A stretch of 64,000 nt of DNA. It comes from Candidatus Berkelbacteria bacterium (GTDB lineage: Bacteria; Patescibacteriota; UBA1384; 2-12-FULL-50-11). The DNA is taken from NCBI GenBank assembly GCA_016432625.1, contig CP066697.1:215363-279362 (forward strand), read 5' to 3'. The translations under genes and the position numbers were made by a program. Under the pieces are notes generated by a model, which worked only from the letters and a program-made list of their open reading frames with translations, made no database searches and was not told the origin of the DNA. Position 1 is the stretch's first letter, and every line of letters begins with the position of its first letter. This document shows, piece by piece, positions 24,101 to 53,135 of the stretch.

Positions 24101-24906
24101 CGATAATTGACACCTTTGTTAAGGGTGCCTCATTCCTTGGTGGGTTCTTCGGAGTTACGCCAACACGCTTACGCGGTAGGCGTTGGGGCATTGTTCGTAA
24201 CCGACGAAGCGGCATGCCAATTGGCGGCGTGTTTATCGAGTTATTGGACGCTACTGGAGAGGCGATCGACCGGGTCTTGACCGACCGAACCGGACATTAT
24301 GCCTTCCTTGTGGATAAGCCCGGACGTTACTGGATCCAAGTGAGAAATCCGCTCTATGAACGATTTTTGAGCCGTCCGCTAACTGTCAATAATCCTGCCG
24401 ACGATTTAATCAATGAAGACATAACGCTTGAGTTGATTGAGGAGAAATTGAAGAGTCGCATGATGATGGTTGGCTGGCTCTTTGGTCTCATGAGGGTACT
24501 TAACTTCATCCACTGGCCGCTCTTAATCTTCGGTAGCGTGTTAGCCGTTTATATCTACTCGATCGATCAGACTTTGCTTAAAGCGCTCGTGGTATCGCTC
24601 TATGTCCTGTTGTGGGGAACAAAGGTACTTGAACTTGATTACAAGCGACCGTTCGGAGTGGTAGTGGATGCGCAAACCGGTAAGCCCCAGCCTTCATCCG
24701 TGGTTCAGATTGTTCAGCGCTCCAAAAACGAAGGCCCGGCGAGTGTCCGTTCAACTATCACAGACCATGCGGGACGTTTCCTATTTGTCATCAAGCCTGG
24801 GCGATATCACCTAATTGCCGGGAAAGAAGGGTACGAACCAGTTGAGATGGAAATTCAGGGCGACACCGTTAACCTAACGATCAAGTTGAAGCAGGATAAG
24901 CGCTAG
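21187..24906 (+). CDS. Giant (1239 aa) multi-domain surface protein: N-terminal TM helices, Gly-rich beta-helix-like region, four Ig-like (Big) repeats, Thr/Pro linker, C-terminal TMs with two carboxypeptidase-regulatory-like domains
   Basis: About 100-aa repeats (TYDVAVPVGG..., TATNLTVTG..., SHSNFTVVPN..., TYSLTTTSPQ...); GGxGG-rich tract; PT-rich linker TETPPVTGTTEETPPTTAPPVTTPT. Exact start uncertain. Confidence 0.6.
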   Translation: MLAISCDYIFGGNIFRSSIPNRTKHALANYPLTFYFGLLALGLAALLGWLKWAYKWDIDFQQFYLWASRNAEILLIGVTFLLSLTLIASAIAYRQTCKMSQEDYYLWLQQRATRTLFPFFTPIHDWLRLHVRLYRWWHTQVYSTTLHVLLFLFFLVLSASSVRTIYSPAPGDPGCTGDEPPITISSNTTWSGNNCYDTITINNNATLTLNGGASVQANSLTLGTGAIPPVNGHITFKYDTLNNLGVSIKILGGVTVNSGSTIKGNGQGYAGGTAGSVNGAGTGGGLGNVGGNSGGGGYGGAGGTVGSATGGATYGSDTAPDVAGSGGGYVSVSGAASNGGAGGAALKIESTGTFTFNGSINADGTVSVPASGIGSGKGGGGSGGSVWMIADTFTGTGTVTANGANGGSNGGGGGGGRIVRRYTSAIGTGLTLSATKGSGGTGGADGTIKNIGPVTTYDVAVPVGGSTTKTAGTSFSLVITAKDSLGATYPTYNGTVTFTSNDTQAIMPSNYTFVAGDNGIKTVSGFTLKTAGTKTITVTEVGNSTVIGTINLTVIAGTATNLTVTGITSTVSAGNAVSPTVTIFDQYGNVATTFTGVVSFSSNDAQATLPANYTFGNPDQGVKVFTNQFVVKTAGTRTLTATATSSSSPGLSSTFQGSHSNFTVVPNTATQIILTNINDSVLAGEKLTPIVTMKDAYGNVATGYTGTVRFTATDTSAVLPGDYTYVANDAGIKTFTNLLEFRTLGSITLTIAEIGGSSGGIISSERSLSTKLTLTVNPGAHSTYSLTTTSPQKVGVGWQETVTPKDAFGNTVTISEKTVITPTASGSVKFYTSNTYLTETSEYVMATQSLTIYLKATAAGTTTITVNDGTRQATSGSIKINPADTATETPPVTGTTEETPPTTAPPVTTPTVSTPQATSQPSTGITRVFETIQETVENNQALVNAANTAAVAVSPVATVVALGPLSTALVTAIIDTFVKGASFLGGFFGVTPTRLRGRRWGIVRNRRSGMPIGGVFIELLDATGEAIDRVLTDRTGHYAFLVDKPGRYWIQVRNPLYERFLSRPLTVNNPADDLINEDITLELIEEKLKSRMMMVGWLFGLMRVLNFIHWPLLIFGSVLAVYIYSIDQTLLKALVVSLYVLLWGTKVLELDYKRPFGVVVDAQTGKPQPSSVVQIVQRSKNEGPASVRSTITDHAGRFLFVIKPGRYHLIAGKEGYEPVEMEIQGDTVNLTIKLKQDKR

Positions 24907-26042
24907 CGCTTAAGTATCGAGGCGATTTTTTTGGCAAGTGACGGCATGTCTTTCGTTGTCATGCCCTTGGTGGTAATTGCCGGTGTACCAAGCCTAATAC
25001 CGTTGGGGTTCATCGGTGAAGCGTCGTCGTAAGGGATAGTATTTTTGTTAACGACTATCTTTTCTTTTTCCAGGCGACTCTGGGCCTCAGTGCCGTCGAT
25101 TCCAAGTGGGCGTAAGTCTATAAGCATTAAGTGGTTGTCGGTGCCGTCGGTTAAGATCGTGATTCCTTCTTTTTGCAGGGATTGTGATAACTCGCGCGCG
25201 TTATCCAGTACGGCCTGGCAGTACTCAACGTATTTTGGGGATGATGCTTCTTCTAGCGCGACGCCAATTGAGGCAATGGCATTTTCATGCGGACCACCCT
25301 GGATGCCAGGGAAAACCGCTTTATCGATTTGTTTTGCTAGATCTTCCCTGCAAAAAATTAACGCTCCTCGCGGTCCACGTAGCAGTTTATGGGTTGTTGT
25401 TGTCACAATATCGGCGTTACCAAATGGCGTTGGATGAAGGCCGGTTGCCACCAGTCCAGAGATGTGGGAAATGTCCGCCAAATGATAGGCTCCAACACTT
25501 TTAGCGATAGCACTAAGGCGTGCAAAGTCGATTGTGCGTGGGTAGGCCGAGGCGCCAGAGATAATCAGTTTTGGTTTTGAAGCCTTAGCGGCCTTAGCGA
25601 TTTCGCCATAGTCGAGCCGGTAACCTTTCTGGCTTACAACGTATGAAGTCCGGTTGTAAGTTTTGCCAGAAATCGTAATAGGATGGCCGTGCGTTAAGTG
25701 ACCACCGTGGCTAAGCTCGAGTCCCATAATTGGGTCCCCCGGCTGGAGGAGTGCGAAGTACACCGCTAAGTTCGCAATTGAACCCGAATAGGCTTGGGTA
25801 TTGACGTGATAATCGGTTTTAAAAACTTTCTGCGCCAAGCCAATCACTAGGTTCTCCATCTCGTCGACTACTTCATTACCGGCGTAATAACGCTTACCGG
25901 GGTAGCCTTCGGCGTATTTGTTAGTGAAATCAGATGCAAGGGCTGCTTTAACCGCATCGGAGGCGTAGTTTTCAGAAGCAATTAGATCAATACATTCGGC
26001 TTGTCGTGCCGTCTCCCGCTTCACTAAATCGACGATCTTCAT
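24903..26042 (-). CDS. glyA: Serine hydroxymethyltransferase
   Basis: PLP-binding Lys region (TTTTHKLLRGPRGA), N-terminal ASENY motif, overall SHMT pattern. Confidence 0.9.
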   Translation of the reverse strand: MKIVDLVKRETARQAECIDLIASENYASDAVKAALASDFTNKYAEGYPGKRYYAGNEVVDEMENLVIGLAQKVFKTDYHVNTQAYSGSIANLAVYFALLQPGDPIMGLELSHGGHLTHGHPITISGKTYNRTSYVVSQKGYRLDYGEIAKAAKASKPKLIISGASAYPRTIDFARLSAIAKSVGAYHLADISHISGLVATGLHPTPFGNADIVTTTTHKLLRGPRGALIFCREDLAKQIDKAVFPGIQGGPHENAIASIGVALEEASSPKYVEYCQAVLDNARELSQSLQKEGITILTDGTDNHLMLIDLRPLGIDGTEAQSRLEKEKIVVNKNTIPYDDASPMNPNGIRLGTPAITTKGMTTKDMPSLAKKIASILKR

Positions 26043-26124
26043 GAGAGCATGTTAGCAGTAAGATGATTTGGTTCCAAGCGACGCGCCATCGGGGTAGCGG
26101 CATAATCCAAGCGGCTCGTTTTAC

Positions 26125-26153
26125 ATGACAAATTCAGACTCAGACCCTACAAT
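26125..26153 (+). promoter_or_regulatory. Candidate promoter for the smpB unit: -35 ATGACA / 17 nt / -10 TACAAT, 11 nt before the first ATG
   Basis: Hexamer match and spacing. Confidence 0.35.
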
Positions 26154-26164
26154 ACGGAAGAACG

Positions 26165-26310
26165 ATGACTGTTATTGCCCGAAATACCCAAGCTTTGCTT
26201 TCGTTGCTCACAATGCGGATTATTGGTGGTGGCAAATGACAATCATAGCTCGCAATACTCAAGCTTCGCTTTCATTGCTCGCTTTGCCGATTATTATAAT
26301 TAGCCAATGA
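26165..26310 (+). repeat. Two tandem 71-nt paralogous copies of the smpB 5' end, each a 24-codon uORF (MTVIARNTQALLSLLTMRIIGGGK; MTIIARNTQASLSLLALPIIIISQ) joined by ATGA overlaps to the real smpB ATG at 26307
   Basis: Units at 26165-26239 and 26236-26310. Unit 2 and smpB share 21/22 nt at the start; unit 1 vs unit 2 about 73% identical. Confidence 0.6.
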
Positions 26311-26756
26311 CAACCATAGCTCGCAATAAAAAGGCCTTCTTTGACTATGAAATCGAGGACAGCGTAGAGGCTGGTCTCGTATTACTTGGAGCAGAAATTA
26401 AAGCCATCCGCGCTAAAGACGTTAATATCACCGGTAGTTACATTAAGCCGTTTGCTGATAAATCAGGACGGGTTGAGCTATGGTGGGTTGGCAGCCATTT
26501 TGGCGTCGCTGAGGGTGATCAGACAAGGACGAAAAAGTTGCTGCTTAACCGTCGGGAGATTGATCATATCACTGGCCGACAGAGCGCCAAGGGTCAGACA
26601 ATTTTGCCCTTGGAGCTCTTTATCAACCGTGGTCGTGCCAAGCTAAAAATAGGTTTAGGTACTCACAAGAAGCCTCATGACCGTCGAGAAGAGCTGCGCG
26701 AGCGTGCTGTTCAGCGCGATGCTGAACGTGACTGGCGCGAACGTTCGAAGCGCTAG
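26307..26756 (+). CDS. smpB: SsrA-binding protein SmpB
   Basis: IARNKKAFFDYEIED...G.EIKAIR N-terminal signature and basic C-terminal tail. Confidence 0.9.
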   Translation: MTTIARNKKAFFDYEIEDSVEAGLVLLGAEIKAIRAKDVNITGSYIKPFADKSGRVELWWVGSHFGVAEGDQTRTKKLLLNRREIDHITGRQSAKGQTILPLELFINRGRAKLKIGLGTHKKPHDRREELRERAVQRDAERDWRERSKR

Positions 26757-27629
26757 TTACCTACTAGTTGGCGTGGAACTCTCGTCCTCAGACGAAGTTA
26801 ATTCCTTGAGTTTGTCGATCTCGTCTCGGGCGGCGCTCAGGCTTGTTTTTGCTTCTTTAAGCTTGGCCTTCGCTGCTGCCAGGTCAGTTTTATAACTGGA
26901 CGCACCCGGGTCGTTAGCAATTTTCTTGTAGGCGTCGTATGCAGCCTGCGCGCTAGTTTTTGCCTGGGCCAGCAAGCCCTCCAACGTCGTAGTATCGAGG
27001 CCGTCGGCCTTTAGACGATCAACTAAAGTTTTTAGCTTACCGTCAATCAGTCCGATTATTCTGTCTGAAGCGCACATGCCGCGCACTGCTGGTAGCAGGG
27101 CGACGTAAACGTGATTCTTGCCGATGATGCCGTTCTTTATCTGTGAACGAACTTGGTCGACGGTTGTATTACTCGGCACAGCTGCGAGATCTTGTTCCAA
27201 TCGGGCAATTACAGCGTTAATCGCGGTCGTTGCTTCAGCCTTAGCCGCAGCGCGACATTTTTTGGTATATTCGCCATCGCGCAACTTCTTTAAGAGTTCC
27301 AAGCGTTCCTCGGTCAATTTCTCAGCTAGCTCTTTTGAGGATTCTAACTTTTTATCTTCTCGGGCATTTTTCGCTGTCTCGAGTGCGGCCTTGCGCGCTT
27401 CTCGCTCTTTCTTTACTTGCTCACGCAAGTTCTCGGCGGTTGTCTTCTTCAATTCAGCTTCTTTCTTCTGGGCCTCAGTTTGCTCAGTAGTACTGGATGA
27501 TTCAGTGTCCTCGGCAAGGACTCTCACTGTAGTCGGGTAGGCTAGTAGGCCGAAGGCTAGAACTAACCCCAGGCTCACGCTTCCAACGGTCTTAAAAATC
27601 GATCGTGTCATCGTCGCTCCCTTCATCAC
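26757..27629 (-). CDS. Secreted coiled-coil protein, unknown function
   Basis: Signal peptide; K/E/A-rich heptad repeats. Confidence 0.4.
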   Translation of the reverse strand: MMKGATMTRSIFKTVGSVSLGLVLAFGLLAYPTTVRVLAEDTESSSTTEQTEAQKKEAELKKTTAENLREQVKKEREARKAALETAKNAREDKKLESSKELAEKLTEERLELLKKLRDGEYTKKCRAAAKAEATTAINAVIARLEQDLAAVPSNTTVDQVRSQIKNGIIGKNHVYVALLPAVRGMCASDRIIGLIDGKLKTLVDRLKADGLDTTTLEGLLAQAKTSAQAAYDAYKKIANDPGASSYKTDLAAAKAKLKEAKTSLSAARDEIDKLKELTSSEDESSTPTSR

Positions 27630-28494: not shown

Positions 28495-29556
28495 ATGGAG
28501 ATTGGAATCGTTGGTTTGCCGAACGTTGGTAAATCATCATTATTTAATGCGCTCACAAAAGCCGGCGCCGAGGCGCAGAACTTTCCGTTCACTACTATCG
28601 AACCAAATGTCGGCATCGTCGAGGTGCCCGACGAGCGGCTGAGCTTTTTAACAGAAAAATTTAAGGCAGCAAAAACCGTCCCGGCAACAATTAAGTTTGT
28701 TGATATCGCGGGACTTGTTAAAGGCGCGTCGCAGGGTGAGGGACTGGGCAATAAGTTCCTGAGCCATATTCGCTCCGTTGATGCGATTGCGGAGGTGGTG
28801 CGGGTTTTCGACGATCCGCAAGTAACGCATGTTCATGGCGGCGTCGACCCTGGTAATGATATCTCAACGATTAACACTGAACTCTTGCTAGCTGACTTAG
28901 AACAAGCTGACCGAGCGTTAACGGCCAACCAAGACAAAATCAAACGCGGCGAGAAGGAAGCTGTTAGGCTGGGCACTTTACTTGAGCAAGCCGTCGCCTT
29001 ATTCAACGACAACAAACCGCTTCGAACTAACCCCGAACTCGCAAAGTCGCTACGCGATTTTCAATTCCTCAGCGCTAAGCCGCTATTATACGTCGCAAAC
29101 ACTGACGAAAAATCAGCTGACGTTAGCGCCGTCGAAACACACGCCCAAAACGAGCAGGCAAAAGTCGTGGCGATTAATGTTAAAGCCGAGCAAGAAATAG
29201 TTGAACTTCCTAGTGGAGAGCAGCTCGAATATCGTGAGGGGCTAGGTCTGAAGTCTGGGTTAGAAGAGGTAATTAAAGCCGGCTACGAGCTACTAGGATT
29301 AATTACTTTCTTTACCGCTGGACCAGACGAATCTCGTGCTTGGACGATCGCGAAAGGTACTAAGGCACCGCAGGCCGCCGGCAAAATTCACACCGATTTT
29401 GAGCATGGCTTTATACGCGCCCAAGTTTATACCTTTGAAGACATAAAAAAATTCGGCAGTGAGAAGGCGATTCGCGACGCCGGCAAACTACGTAGTGAGG
29501 GCAAGGAATATGTGATGCGCGACGGTGATGTAGTGGAGTTCCTGTTTAACGTGTAG
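28495..29556 (+). CDS. ychF: Ribosome-binding ATPase YchF (Obg-family)
   Basis: GLPNVGKSSLFNAL G1 motif, TGS domain at the C-terminus, 353 aa. Confidence 0.9.
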   Translation: MEIGIVGLPNVGKSSLFNALTKAGAEAQNFPFTTIEPNVGIVEVPDERLSFLTEKFKAAKTVPATIKFVDIAGLVKGASQGEGLGNKFLSHIRSVDAIAEVVRVFDDPQVTHVHGGVDPGNDISTINTELLLADLEQADRALTANQDKIKRGEKEAVRLGTLLEQAVALFNDNKPLRTNPELAKSLRDFQFLSAKPLLYVANTDEKSADVSAVETHAQNEQAKVVAINVKAEQEIVELPSGEQLEYREGLGLKSGLEEVIKAGYELLGLITFFTAGPDESRAWTIAKGTKAPQAAGKIHTDFEHGFIRAQVYTFEDIKKFGSEKAIRDAGKLRSEGKEYVMRDGDVVEFLFNV

Positions 29557-40544: not shown

Positions 40545-41258
40545 AGCGCCTCCTTGCGGAAGCGCTTTTAGCGGAAACCTAATAAGCCGGGTTCTGTAAC
40601 TACCTTGCGGCAGCTCGCGAACATTAATCTAATGCGTTGAGACCAACTATTCTGTCTCGAGACCGAGACGGAGCTCGTTGTTCCTTTTGGGAACGATGAA
40701 CTTAATGAATAGCGGCCCGCTCAACTTGCACCACGCTGGGTTTAGCCACTCGCCTTATTACTAAGGACGATTGTGAGCTCTTACCTCACTCTTTTCACCT
40801 TTGCCTTTTCCGATTCAGTTAGGAAGGGGCGAACAAGTCGCCCAGATTAAGGGGACGGGTCGAATGAACTAGGTCTAGTTACAGGTCACGCTGACGATTG
40901 TTGCCTTGACTACACCAGCCTCGGCGTACATTCCTTGGCAACTGTTTTCGGCCCATCGTCTTGCTTTGCGATCGGCTTCTTGGCGGTTTTCGGCATCGAT
41001 CGACTTTTCCAAAGTTTTGATATAAGAACCATTCTCATTGATTGGTTCGAACACACCTGCCTTGGCTTTGCACGTGACTCGAATTTTAGCGGTTGCATTA
41101 AAGTACATGAATATCACCTCCTAACTGAACCGGACATTGGCTGTTTTGTTTCTGTGCCACTTTCCCTTGCCTTACGACAGCCAGCCGTTAGCTGGAGCGC
41201 GTCTCTATGGTGCCCGGACTTTCCTCACATTTTAAAATGCGCGATCGCGTTGATTTCA
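40545..41258 (-). ncRNA. rnpB: RNase P RNA (bacterial type A), interrupted by a ~290-nt insertion (40828-41116)
   Basis: P4 5' strand GAGGAAAGUCCGGGCACCAUAG (41235-41214); GGGAAAGUGGCACAGAAA; AAGGUGAAAAGAGUGAGGUAAGAGCUCAC (J11/12-P12); GGCUAAACCCA; P4 3' strand ACAGAACCCGGCUUAUU (40597-40581). Promoter TGGACT/17/TATAAT upstream and hairpin plus UUUUG terminator downstream. Confidence 0.75.
40875..41108 (-). CDS. 77-codon ORF embedded in the rnpB insertion (MYFNATAKIRVTCKAKAG...SVTCN), preceded by SD AGGAGG
   Basis: AGGAGGUG, then 8 nt, then AUG; basic soluble peptide with 3 Cys; the SD forms part of the helix closing the insertion. Confidence 0.4.
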   Translation of the reverse strand: MYFNATAKIRVTCKAKAGVFEPINENGSYIKTLEKSIDAENRQEADRKARRWAENSCQGMYAEAGVVKATIVSVTCN

Positions 41259-41326
41259 CGGAAATTATAGCCCAAATTATCGTGAAAGTCCACCGCTAGA
41301 GTGGCGATTTTCTCTTATTGTAAAGC

Positions 41327-48141: not shown

Positions 48142-48255
48142 AAGAACGGCCGCAAGATGCGGGTGATTCTGAACACAAAGTGCGAGGAACGACCGTCGTA
48201 GACGGGTGATTCTGAACATGAAATGTAAAGAACGGCCGCAAGATGCGGGTGATTA
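48142..48255. repeat. Tandem partial duplications of the tRNA-Val 5' end and leader: a 27-nt exact repeat AAGAACGGCCGCAAGATGCGGGTGATT (48142-48168 and 48229-48255) and a third GGGTGATTCTGAACA copy (48204-48218)
   Basis: Direct sequence identity; period about 43-44 nt. Confidence 0.55.
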
Positions 48256-48318
48256 GCTCAGCGGTAGAGCATCGCGTTCACATCGCGAGGGTCGCTGGTT
48301 CAAGTCCAGCATCACCCA
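48247..48318 (+). tRNA. tRNA-Val (CAC)
   Basis: Acceptor GGGTGAT/ATCACCC, anticodon stem TCGCG/CGCGA, loop TTCACAT. Confidence 0.85.
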
Positions 48319-48372
48319 CTTCGTAAGAATAAATATTTCCAAGATCCAACCAATTGATTACAATAATGACCA

Positions 48373-51700: not shown

Positions 51701-51755
51701 ATACTGACGCATCGCCGGATGACAAATTAAACCTGTTAGAGTACAATTACCAAGC

Positions 51756-53135
51756 ATGAAATCGCCAAAGGCCGGCAAATTAGAACTCAAGGTGATTTAT
51801 CACCCCGCTTTGCGACGTCAAGCTCGCCCTGTCGTGGACTTCGGCCCAGATTTAAAGAACGAAGCCGAACAAATGATAAGAGTGATGAAGGAACATCACG
51901 GTCTCGGTTTGGCAGCGCCACAGGTTGACCTTGATAAGCGGCTAATCGTTTACGGCTACGAGCCAAAAAACAAAGATGATAAATTGCCGGCGATCCCTTT
52001 CACGGCCCTAATGAACCCAAAAGTAGTTAAGTTCAGTCAAGAAAAAGAGACCATGACTGAGGGATGCTTATCGCTACCCGGGCTAGAGCTTCCTGTGACC
52101 CGTAGTGCCGGGGTGACGGTCAACGCTCAGAACCTTGATGGGCAACCGGTAGTGATTAGAGCTAAGGGTCTGGCGGCACGAGTTTTGCAGCACGAGATTG
52201 ACCATCTTGACGGTATCTTATTCACTGATCGAGCCGATAATTTCCGCGATCTTGCCGATTACAGGTTTGCGAAAATTGTTTTCTTTGGTAGTGATGATTT
52301 TTCCTTACCGGTCTTGCGAGCACTCGTCGCCGCTAAATTAAGCATTATCGCGGCAATAACCGAGACGGATAAACCAGCTGGTCGGGGCGGGAAGTTACTG
52401 CCGACGCCAATAAAAACTGAGGCCGATAAGTTGGGTATCGCCATAATTCAGCCCGAGTCTAAGGAAGAAATCACCGCAGTTATCCGACAGCTCAAGCCGG
52501 ATCTAGTCGTTTTGGCGTCCTACGGCAAAATTTTGTTACCGGAAACACTGAGTACGCCGACCTTCGGGGCGCTCAACGTTCACCCTTCACTCCTACCGAA
52601 GTACCGCGGCGCCACGCCAATTCAAAGCGCTATTTTAAGCGGGGAGGACAAGACTGGCGTGACGATAATGACGATGGCACCAGAGGTGGACGCCGGCTTG
52701 ATGATCGCTCAGGAAACTCACCGCATCGAGTCAAGTGACACTGCCGCAACACTACGCCATAAACTCGCCCAACTAGGCGCGACGCTTCTTGTTAACGCTA
52801 TACCGCCGTACTTAGCCGGACAGGCAAAGTTGGCTCACCAGATGGAAAATCAGGTTACAAAAACGCAGAAACTGAGTAAGGAAATGGGCCAGATCGACTG
52901 GTCGAAGCCGTTACAACAAATTGACCGGGAAATTCGGGCGTTCTACCCATGGCCAGGGGCGTACACCGACCTTGCCGGGAAACGGCTTAAGTTTCTTGGT
53001 AGCCGGTTTGAAGCTGGTAGGTTGATACTGGAGACAGTTCAGCTTGAAGGGAAAAAGCCGGCTGCTTGGAGTGACTTTGAGCGGGGCTATCTTCAGGTAT
53101 TGAAGAAAACTGACTGGTACGGTAAGATTTCCTAG
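51756..53135 (+). CDS. def-fmt: Fusion protein: peptide deformylase (N-terminal) + methionyl-tRNA formyltransferase (C-terminal)
   Basis: PDF motifs GLGLAAPQ, EGCLS, QHEIDH in aa 1-165. Fmt domains from IVFFGSDDFSLPVL with NVHPSLLPKYRG through the C-terminal domain. Single uninterrupted 459-codon frame. Confidence 0.8.
   Translation: MKSPKAGKLELKVIYHPALRRQARPVVDFGPDLKNEAEQMIRVMKEHHGLGLAAPQVDLDKRLIVYGYEPKNKDDKLPAIPFTALMNPKVVKFSQEKETMTEGCLSLPGLELPVTRSAGVTVNAQNLDGQPVVIRAKGLAARVLQHEIDHLDGILFTDRADNFRDLADYRFAKIVFFGSDDFSLPVLRALVAAKLSIIAAITETDKPAGRGGKLLPTPIKTEADKLGIAIIQPESKEEITAVIRQLKPDLVVLASYGKILLPETLSTPTFGALNVHPSLLPKYRGATPIQSAILSGEDKTGVTIMTMAPEVDAGLMIAQETHRIESSDTAATLRHKLAQLGATLLVNAIPPYLAGQAKLAHQMENQVTKTQKLSKEMGQIDWSKPLQQIDREIRAFYPWPGAYTDLAGKRLKFLGSRFEAGRLILETVQLEGKKPAAWSDFERGYLQVLKKTDWYGKIS

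Follow-up and report, generated by a model that had tools for sequence, protein, structure and literature searches.

Why does the gene of the trans-translation factor SmpB begin three times over in this Candidatus Berkelbacteria genome, and does this unusual layout control the synthesis of the protein, or is it the trace of a past accident? Within the window (the whole 64,000-nt stretch of DNA analyzed here), smpB (26307..26756, + strand) encodes a 149-aa protein of the PF01668 family, 100% identical to QQG50256.1 and QQG51977.1 from a Candidatus Berkelbacteria MAG. As pointed out in an earlier note on this DNA, three tandem units of 71 nt, each headed by an ATG, start at positions 26165, 26236 and 26307. 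The sequence itself, a pattern search with shuffles and TRF all bear this out: the head pattern ATGACNNYNATNGCNCGNAATA has three matches in the whole 64-kb window, only at these positions (0 expected from 100 shuffles), and TRF reports a 71-nt array at 26183-26328 with 2.1 copies, 80% matches and a score of 187. The head consensus given in the note has nevertheless to be amended, as its fixed T at position 8 is a C in copy 3. Copy 1 (26165-26235, + strand) forms uORF1, running with its stop codon from 26165 to 26239 and sitting at the position of the smpB start in the relatives, and copy 2 (26236-26306, + strand) forms uORF2, running likewise from 26236 to 26310; both consist of 24 codons followed by TGA, while the third repeat head is provided by the first 22 nt of smpB (26307-26328). 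The translations, MTVIARNTQALLSLLTMRIIGGGK for uORF1, MTIIARNTQASLSLLALPIIIISQ for uORF2 and MTTIARNKKA... for SmpB, agree with the products previously read as MTVIARNTQA..., MTIIARNTQA... and the real SmpB, PF01668 identifying the third.

Successive copies lie in different frames, and between the ATG proximal to the upstream promoter (P1, see below) and smpB the two short ORFs leave no gap, uORF1 joining uORF2 and uORF2 joining smpB through ATGA overlaps at 26236-26239 and 26307-26310. The earlier note had named these ATGA overlaps correctly in its title; its text, which made the A of each stop codon the first base of the next ATG, is in error, as the T and G of the stop are bases 2 and 3 of that ATG. 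These junctions follow from a period of 71 nt (2 mod 3) combined with ACN as the second codon and are hence no independent coincidence. The chance of finding both uORFs open is 0.08.

The triplication of the smpB 5' end is real and old. Indeed, the 421 nt from 26000 to 26420 are identical in three assemblies from different runs (the window, Logan SRR12113407 and Logan SRR12113397) and 20 of the 71 positions distinguish copy 1 from copy 2, i.e., a divergence of 28%, so that the array is neither a mis-assembly nor the product of recent slippage, the latter being a possibility that the note had envisaged. Copies 1 and 2 align without indel, with 16/22 identical positions in the head, 35/49 in the tail and 51/71 over the whole unit, whereas copies 2 and 3 share 21/22 positions of the head and only 13/49 of the tail, a random level (34/71 over the unit), and copies 1 and 3 share 15/22, 17/49 and 32/71, respectively. 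The part of the unit traceable to smpB is thus limited to the 22-nt head. With copies following one another head to tail without spacer, the last of which runs on into the intact gene, and with no counterpart in the sister lineage L006, the array reads as a tandem segmental duplication of the smpB 5' end.

The comparison of smpB upstream regions that the earlier note had called for was carried out on 11 related loci from other metagenomes (L017 and L018 being identical sequences from two runs). A single smpB start is found in nine of them (L006, L007, L008, L012, L014, L016, L019, L021 and L026), and a second clade exhibits an independent duplication of the head. The gene order glyA (divergent)-smpB-284-aa gene-92-aa gene-DUF4430 is kept in all relatives examined and, where glyA and smpB are adjacent, the spacer measures 24-90 nt in single-start relatives versus 264 nt in the window. 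In L016, an extra gene of 142 aa without Pfam match (L016:1005-1433) is located between glyA and smpB. The closest relative, L006, whose SmpB shares 75% amino acid identity with that of the window and is its sister in the SmpB tree, has the layout ATGACA-17-TACAAT-11 nt-ATG(smpB), which is precisely the layout found before copy 1 in the window. This layout in L006 and the other relatives implies that copy 1 holds the ancestral position of the smpB start and that the lineage of the window gained 142 nt (2 x 71) between promoter and gene. No relative closer than 75% SmpB identity was found in the protein collection, and SmpB peptide patterns, run against GTDB genomes and JGI metagenomes, matched only distant proteobacterial smpB loci.

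Regarding transcription, the promoter-like sequence noticed earlier just upstream of the array is confirmed. P1 is composed of a -35 hexamer ATGACA (26125..26130, + strand) and a -10 hexamer TACAAT (26148..26153, + strand), the latter 11 nt before ATG 26165, with the same spacing as in L006; ATGACA-17-TACAAT (26125-26153) scores 10/12 and is the sole + strand match in the scanned region 25900-26900. It is also conserved: TACAAT is present in 11/11 relatives, 6-11 nt before the first ATG, and most of them have ATGACA 17 nt upstream, this -35 hexamer being the same in L006, L007, L014, L017, L019, L021 and L026. The 11-nt spacing of P1 to the ATG in the window is longer than the genome mode of 6 nt and outside the strict leaderless range of 6-8 nt after the -10 box, and uORF1 would therefore carry a leader of 4-5 nt. 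No stop codon interrupts the frame of uORF2 upstream as far as ATG 26125, which falls within the -35 hexamer, and a mechanical ORF of 61 aa results. On the opposite strand, the divergent neighbor of smpB, glyA (serine hydroxymethyltransferase; 24903..26042, - strand), is preceded by a -10-like TAACAT (26049..26054, - strand) 6 nt before its ATG, that is, by a leaderless-type start. The GGAAGA formerly proposed as the Shine-Dalgarno (SD) sequence of the first ATG is not credible in this largely leaderless genome, since it lies within the 11 nt separating the -10 box from ATG 26165, at or before the likely transcription start. Its counterpart in L006 is ACAGAAGAATA, and there is no GGAG, GAGG or AGGA upstream of 26165 or of 26307. 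In the tail of copy 1, GGTGGTGG (26225..26232, + strand; 3-10 nt before ATG 26236) contains a GGTG which, by inference from its sequence, may act as a weak SD for uORF2.

A second promoter candidate, which the earlier note had missed, is located within the array itself. The copy 2 tail includes a perfect TATAAT (26295..26300, + strand), separated by 6 nt from the smpB ATG that follows; this hexamer has only 16 occurrences on both strands of the window. Copy 1 has GGTGGTGG where copy 2 has ATAATTAG, and differences between the tails cluster in this stretch. This candidate -10 box, P2, is absent from the list of a strict promoter scan (25900-26900) because its -35 matches at only 3/6 positions; weak -35 elements are typical of the leaderless-type promoters of the window. 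Indeed, TANNNT occurs exactly 6 nt before the first ATG of 13/67 long ORFs of the window versus a background of 2.3% (p=4e-9), and 6-8 nt before it in 20/67 (p=3e-10), SD-like motifs being present at only 13/67 starts, mostly of operon-internal genes. Such leaderless-type starts include ATGs 28495, 56945, 36867, 14123 and 26042, and their -10 box is often preceded by TGn. As transcription from sigma-70 promoters starts about 7 nt after the -10 hexamer, a -10 box at 6 nt leaves no leader, and this Candidatus Berkelbacteria genome hence appears to make heavy use of leaderless mRNAs. With TATAAT followed by 6 nt and without SD, the smpB ATG at 26307 has the attributes of these starts, so that smpB is plausibly transcribed independently of the uORFs and probably has its own leaderless transcript from P2.

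Leaderless starts with a -10 box at 6 nt, documented here from the sequence of a CPR (Berkelbacteria) genome, bear on the annotation of gene starts. Among the relatives, several SmpB proteins are called from ATGs located inside the promoter, either at the -35 ATGACA (P0006, P0010) or at the ATG contained in TACAATG (P0003, P0004), and these starts are annotation artefacts. The misplaced starts at L014:1501, L007:770 and L012:1501, and that of protein P0010, add N-terminal extensions of 3-13 residues, e.g., MTNPKLEPTIGE-MDLFF. The serine hydroxymethyltransferase measures 379-380 aa in the window, L006, L014 and L016 and is called with 424-451 aa in L012, L015, L017-L019, L021 and L026, which is either a real difference or the result of an over-extended start in a leaderless context. 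Another leaderless-type start, TATAAT followed by 6 nt, belongs to ychF (28495-29556, + strand), 1.7 kb downstream of smpB; YchF has been reported to modulate the translation of leaderless mRNAs, according to work cited in PMC12641178.

The reading that we favor, to which we give a probability of about 0.55, is that of an old and lineage-specific duplication of the smpB 5' end, after which smpB is expressed through P2, through a relay of AUGA junctions, or through both. P1, once directly before smpB, would now stand before copy 1, and the 142 extra bases would carry two 24-codon ORFs in different frames. By a first route, the TATAAT in the tail of copy 2 would yield a new leaderless smpB transcript; by a second one, ribosomes would load on the P1 transcript at the 5'-proximal AUG of uORF1 and proceed from uORF1 to uORF2 and then to smpB by termination-reinitiation at the two AUGA junctions, both routes being non-exclusive. 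The uORFs would be a by-product of the duplication, tolerated and perhaps entrenched, and no purpose-built sensor. Where transcription starts at this locus, whether the uORFs are translated and ribosomes reinitiate, and how far P1 and P2 are each used, are inferences from the sequence. The two-step reinitiation proposed in the earlier note keeps its place among these routes, in view of the tiling, of the ATGA geometry and of a constrained analogue in L015 and L017 described below; as the sole route to smpB it is not supported, since TATAAT would provide a direct one.

Should P2 be the only element that counts, P1 and both uORFs would be irrelevant leftovers of a promoter replacement and a leaderless mRNA from P2 would account for all smpB expression. 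The position of TATAAT before the ATG, at the modal spacing of the genome, and the concentration of the differences between the two tails exactly at this place (GGTGGTGG versus ATAATTAG) are what such a replacement would leave, and the tails of the window uORFs are free of codon-periodic constraint, their differences being distributed 6/4/4 over the codon positions, with no sign of selection on the uORF peptides. We nevertheless consider it rather unlikely that nothing else counts, as P1 shares its hexamers with the relatives and as both ATGs, both frames and the exact period of 71 nt have been kept despite 28% divergence. The intactness of P1 is not decisive in this respect because, given the divergence of the copies, we estimate at ~16% the chance that its hexamers would stay unchanged under neutrality. 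A bias toward third positions between copies 1 and 2 (2/1/8 over the first 16 codons, p=0.009) was considered as an indication of selection on the peptides and rejected, being confined to the head, where synonymous drift of smpB and gene conversion explain it.

The equivalent leader of the second clade, which is constrained and has no internal -10 box, also speaks against a complete dispensability of the uORFs. In L015, whose SmpB is 67% identical to that of the window, TACAAT is followed after 6 nt by the ATG of a leaderless 25-codon uORF (L015:1421-1498), MELSFRNKKALCDFESVSLRNEEGD (MELSFRNKKALCDFE...), the first ~15 residues of which copy the SmpB N-terminus MDIFFRNKKAFFDY and the TAA of which is located 2 nt before the smpB ATG. 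In L017/L018, a 62-codon ORF runs from the promoter-proximal ATG to a stop 8 nt into smpB and includes MSNLFFRNKKAFFDFES..., a second SmpB-like head; the corresponding uORF of this clade lies at L017:1056-1208 (same sequence in L018), its SmpB-like part being FRNKKA..DFES. The uORFs of L015 and L017 are homologous to each other, as they have in common a tail absent from smpB. They share 51/72 nt (71%) compared with 21/52 (40%) at the four-fold sites of smpB (Fisher p=9e-4), and 38/48 at codon positions 1 and 2 (p=1e-4), an identity above the level of four-fold sites which points to purifying constraint on this uORF. Since no -10-like hexamer precedes smpB in L015 and L017, the gene must rely in these genomes on coupling or on a weak GAAGG SD, and the end of the uORF within 8 nt of the smpB ATG fits translational coupling. 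Comparisons of the uORF with smpB within L015 (3/5/8) and within L017 (3/3/10) were discarded as evidence of selection, such counts being expected without selection on the uORF, and a homologue search with the 62-aa ORF of L018 matched only itself. In L015, the uORF contains an internal repeat, CTAAGCTTCCGCAAC at 1427-1441 (LSFRN) and GTAAGCTTGAGAAAC at 1469-1483 (VSLRN), identical at 11/15 positions, which suggests a nested duplication.

The uORF is absent from three other members of this clade (L019, L021 and L026), and local alignment reveals no significant similarity between the tails of the window and the leaders of L015 and L017. On the simplest view, the event in the window is therefore independent of the one in L015/L017. 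All four upstream frames (two in the window, one in L015 and one in L017) are open, with a joint chance of ~9e-4 to be read knowing that the frames of L015 and L017 are not fully independent. As to the recurrence of smpB-head duplication, it is suggestive but not significant after allowing for ascertainment (p about 0.15, our estimate).

These observations raise the question of a dedicated translational control, in which the P1 transcript would be the only source of SmpB, reached by two obligatory reinitiation steps, and selection would have favored the chain for setting or modulating how much SmpB is made, for instance according to termination or ribosome-rescue capacity. Such control would make sense of the ATGA junctions and the complete tiling by ORFs, of the conservation of P1, of the constrained uORF of L015 and L017, which always ends next to the smpB ATG, and of two independent origins in one gene family. 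We regard it as doubtful: a perfect -10 box at leaderless spacing before smpB offers a bypass, the ATGA junctions are automatic from the period, the recurrence loses significance with ascertainment, the tails of the window show no codon-periodic constraint and nine of the 12 genomes examined, including the closest relative, have no uORF at all. Moreover, the elements expected of a control system were searched for in vain. There is no terminator or attenuator in 25900-26900 and hence none between P1 and smpB; four folds gave no RNA structure above shuffles (z = +0.72, -0.52, +0.62 and +0.58); and Rfam 15 returned no match at the gathering threshold, only noise with E>=6 at 26416-26474. No run of sensing codons occurs in MTVIARNTQALLSLLTMRIIGGGK or MTIIARNTQASLSLLALPIIIISQ except GGG and IIII, which are not common to both copies, and uORF1 and uORF2 share no C-terminal arrest or stalling motif (GGGK versus IISQ, with six of the last eight residues differing). 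Peptides of 24 residues are, in addition, too short to emerge from the ribosome tunnel. In these features the smpB leader resembles neither an attenuator nor an arrest-peptide system, and the built-in translational control suggested by the earlier note is not upheld, for want of an attenuator or terminator, of significant RNA structure, of an Rfam match and of codon-periodic constraint in the tails. A dedicated regulatory role of the array in trans-translation is possible and unsupported. We would give still less credit to the broader proposal that Berkelbacteria have repeatedly recruited leaderless ORFs copying the SmpB N-terminus as a ribosome relay, the synthesis of SmpB gauging termination and reinitiation, i.e., the status of translation or rescue, with the uORF of L015/L017 and the AUGA chain of the window as two versions; this would be a speculative and improbable scenario.

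The heads themselves could be repeated RNA or DNA sites for a regulator, such as SmpB acting on its own mRNA, or the hydrophobic 24-aa peptides could be functional small proteins. The head is kept in 3/3 copies, and those of copies 2 and 3 are identical at 21/22 positions compared with 71% identity for the tails (p=0.006), an excess for which gene conversion or constraint is needed, the simple duplication model not predicting which; the peptides, moreover, have a hydrophobic core. Both proposals appear very improbable to us, considering that gene conversion from smpB can explain the conservation of the head, that no structure above shuffles and no Rfam match were obtained, that the tails have no coding signature and that the 61-aa ORF has no homologue among 1.84 billion representatives except two repeat-protein matches. 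The origin of the 49-nt tail was also investigated: local alignments against the promoter region and the smpB body gave no significant match (p>=0.13), no match in the rest of the window scored above these comparisons (no p-value was computed there) and a scan of viral contigs with the tail pattern found none. The resemblance of CACAATGCGGA in tail 1 to TACAATACGGA in P1 was rejected as a source of the tail, being non-significant (p=0.13). Finally, an assembly artefact or a very recent slippage polymorphism, for which the tandem layout speaks and nothing more, can be dismissed for practical purposes: the earlier note would have recognized an artefact by single starts in the relatives together with assembly collapse or expansion, and nine relatives do have single starts, yet the same 421 nt are found in three assemblies from different runs and copies differing at 20/71 positions are not the near-identical ones that collapse, expansion or recent slippage would leave.

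The literature searched on smpB uORFs, on leaderless mRNAs in CPR bacteria and on 5' duplications of leaderless genes contains nothing describing this arrangement, and its parts have counterparts in known systems. ATGA overlaps have been experimentally demonstrated to be coupled by termination-reinitiation in 13/14 tested pairs (Huber et al., 2019, PMC6728339). As in these ATGA/TGATG pairs, the ORFs of the window are co-directional with a 4-nt ATGA overlap, the SD of the downstream start is weak or missing, and the terminating ribosome would be expected to reinitiate; in contrast to them, the upstream ORFs repeat the start of the downstream gene out of frame, as two 24-codon copies in series, the first being probably leaderless or nearly so, and coupling is here predicted from the sequence. 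The leaderless first-cistron sORFs of mycobacteria (Shell et al., 2015, PMC4633059; Canestrari et al., bioRxiv 10.1101/834739) similarly place a short ORF at or near the 5' end of the transcript before the main gene in a leaderless-rich genome, while the window has no run of sensing codons and no duplex sequestering a ribosome binding site, and its sORFs derive from duplication of the start of the main gene. The control of arfA by trans-translation (PMC10107115) likewise concerns a ribosome-rescue factor gene with an unusual post-transcriptional arrangement, but arfA requires a non-stop mRNA produced by hairpin cleavage, whereas the uORFs and smpB of the window have stop codons and no predicted hairpin. 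Arrest peptides such as SecM, MifM, the RAPP peptides and CliM (PMC10951233, PMC13183943) are also encoded by a short upstream ORF before a gene of a core machine, unlike the window uORFs in having a conserved C-terminal arrest motif (here GGGK versus IISQ). Tandem promoters, or the capture of a promoter after segmental duplication, offer the likeness of two -10 boxes in series before one gene, the second within duplicated DNA, and differ in that the duplicated unit of the window includes a start codon and coding sequence, which would place translated frames between the promoters. Most likely, the mechanics of the array would be those of known ATGA termination-reinitiation (PMC6728339) downstream of a leaderless short ORF of the mycobacterial kind (PMC4633059; bioRxiv 10.1101/834739), alongside the new P2.

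If the relay operates, the locus would provide a natural leaderless mRNA with two successive AUGA reinitiations before an important gene, and would illustrate how a leaderless gene can survive a duplication of its 5' end, which then becomes entrenched. Were the array no more than a scar equipped with a new promoter, it would be an instructive but ordinary case of genome evolution. The main value of the finding lies in the comparative evidence of head-copy uORFs persisting under constraint: the constraint on a uORF mimicking the SmpB head in two other species suggests that scars of this kind can acquire a function in gene expression.

Several other features of the window deserve mention. The promoter of the gene at 51756 (51715-51755) has the -35 context ATGACAAATT and the TACAAT -10 box in common with smpB P1 (26125-26164). 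A match to the bacterial class A RNase P RNA (40568-41260, - strand) spans 693 nt for a model of 367 positions, implying that this gene carries large insertions. The sole other long-period tandem array of the window (48142-48254, 43 nt x 2.6) is found at the 5' end of another gene, tRNA-Val(CAC) (48247-48319). Its copies A and C have in common AAGAACGGCCGCAAGATGCGGGTGATT, made of 19 nt of upstream sequence and the first 8 nt of the tRNA, while copies A and B have in common a tail, CTGAACA..., which is not tRNA sequence. With about three copies and the topology H-T-H-T-H(gene), as at smpB, this array at the tRNA 5' end argues for a general process at gene starts, mutational or due to survivorship, and not for a translation-specific design.
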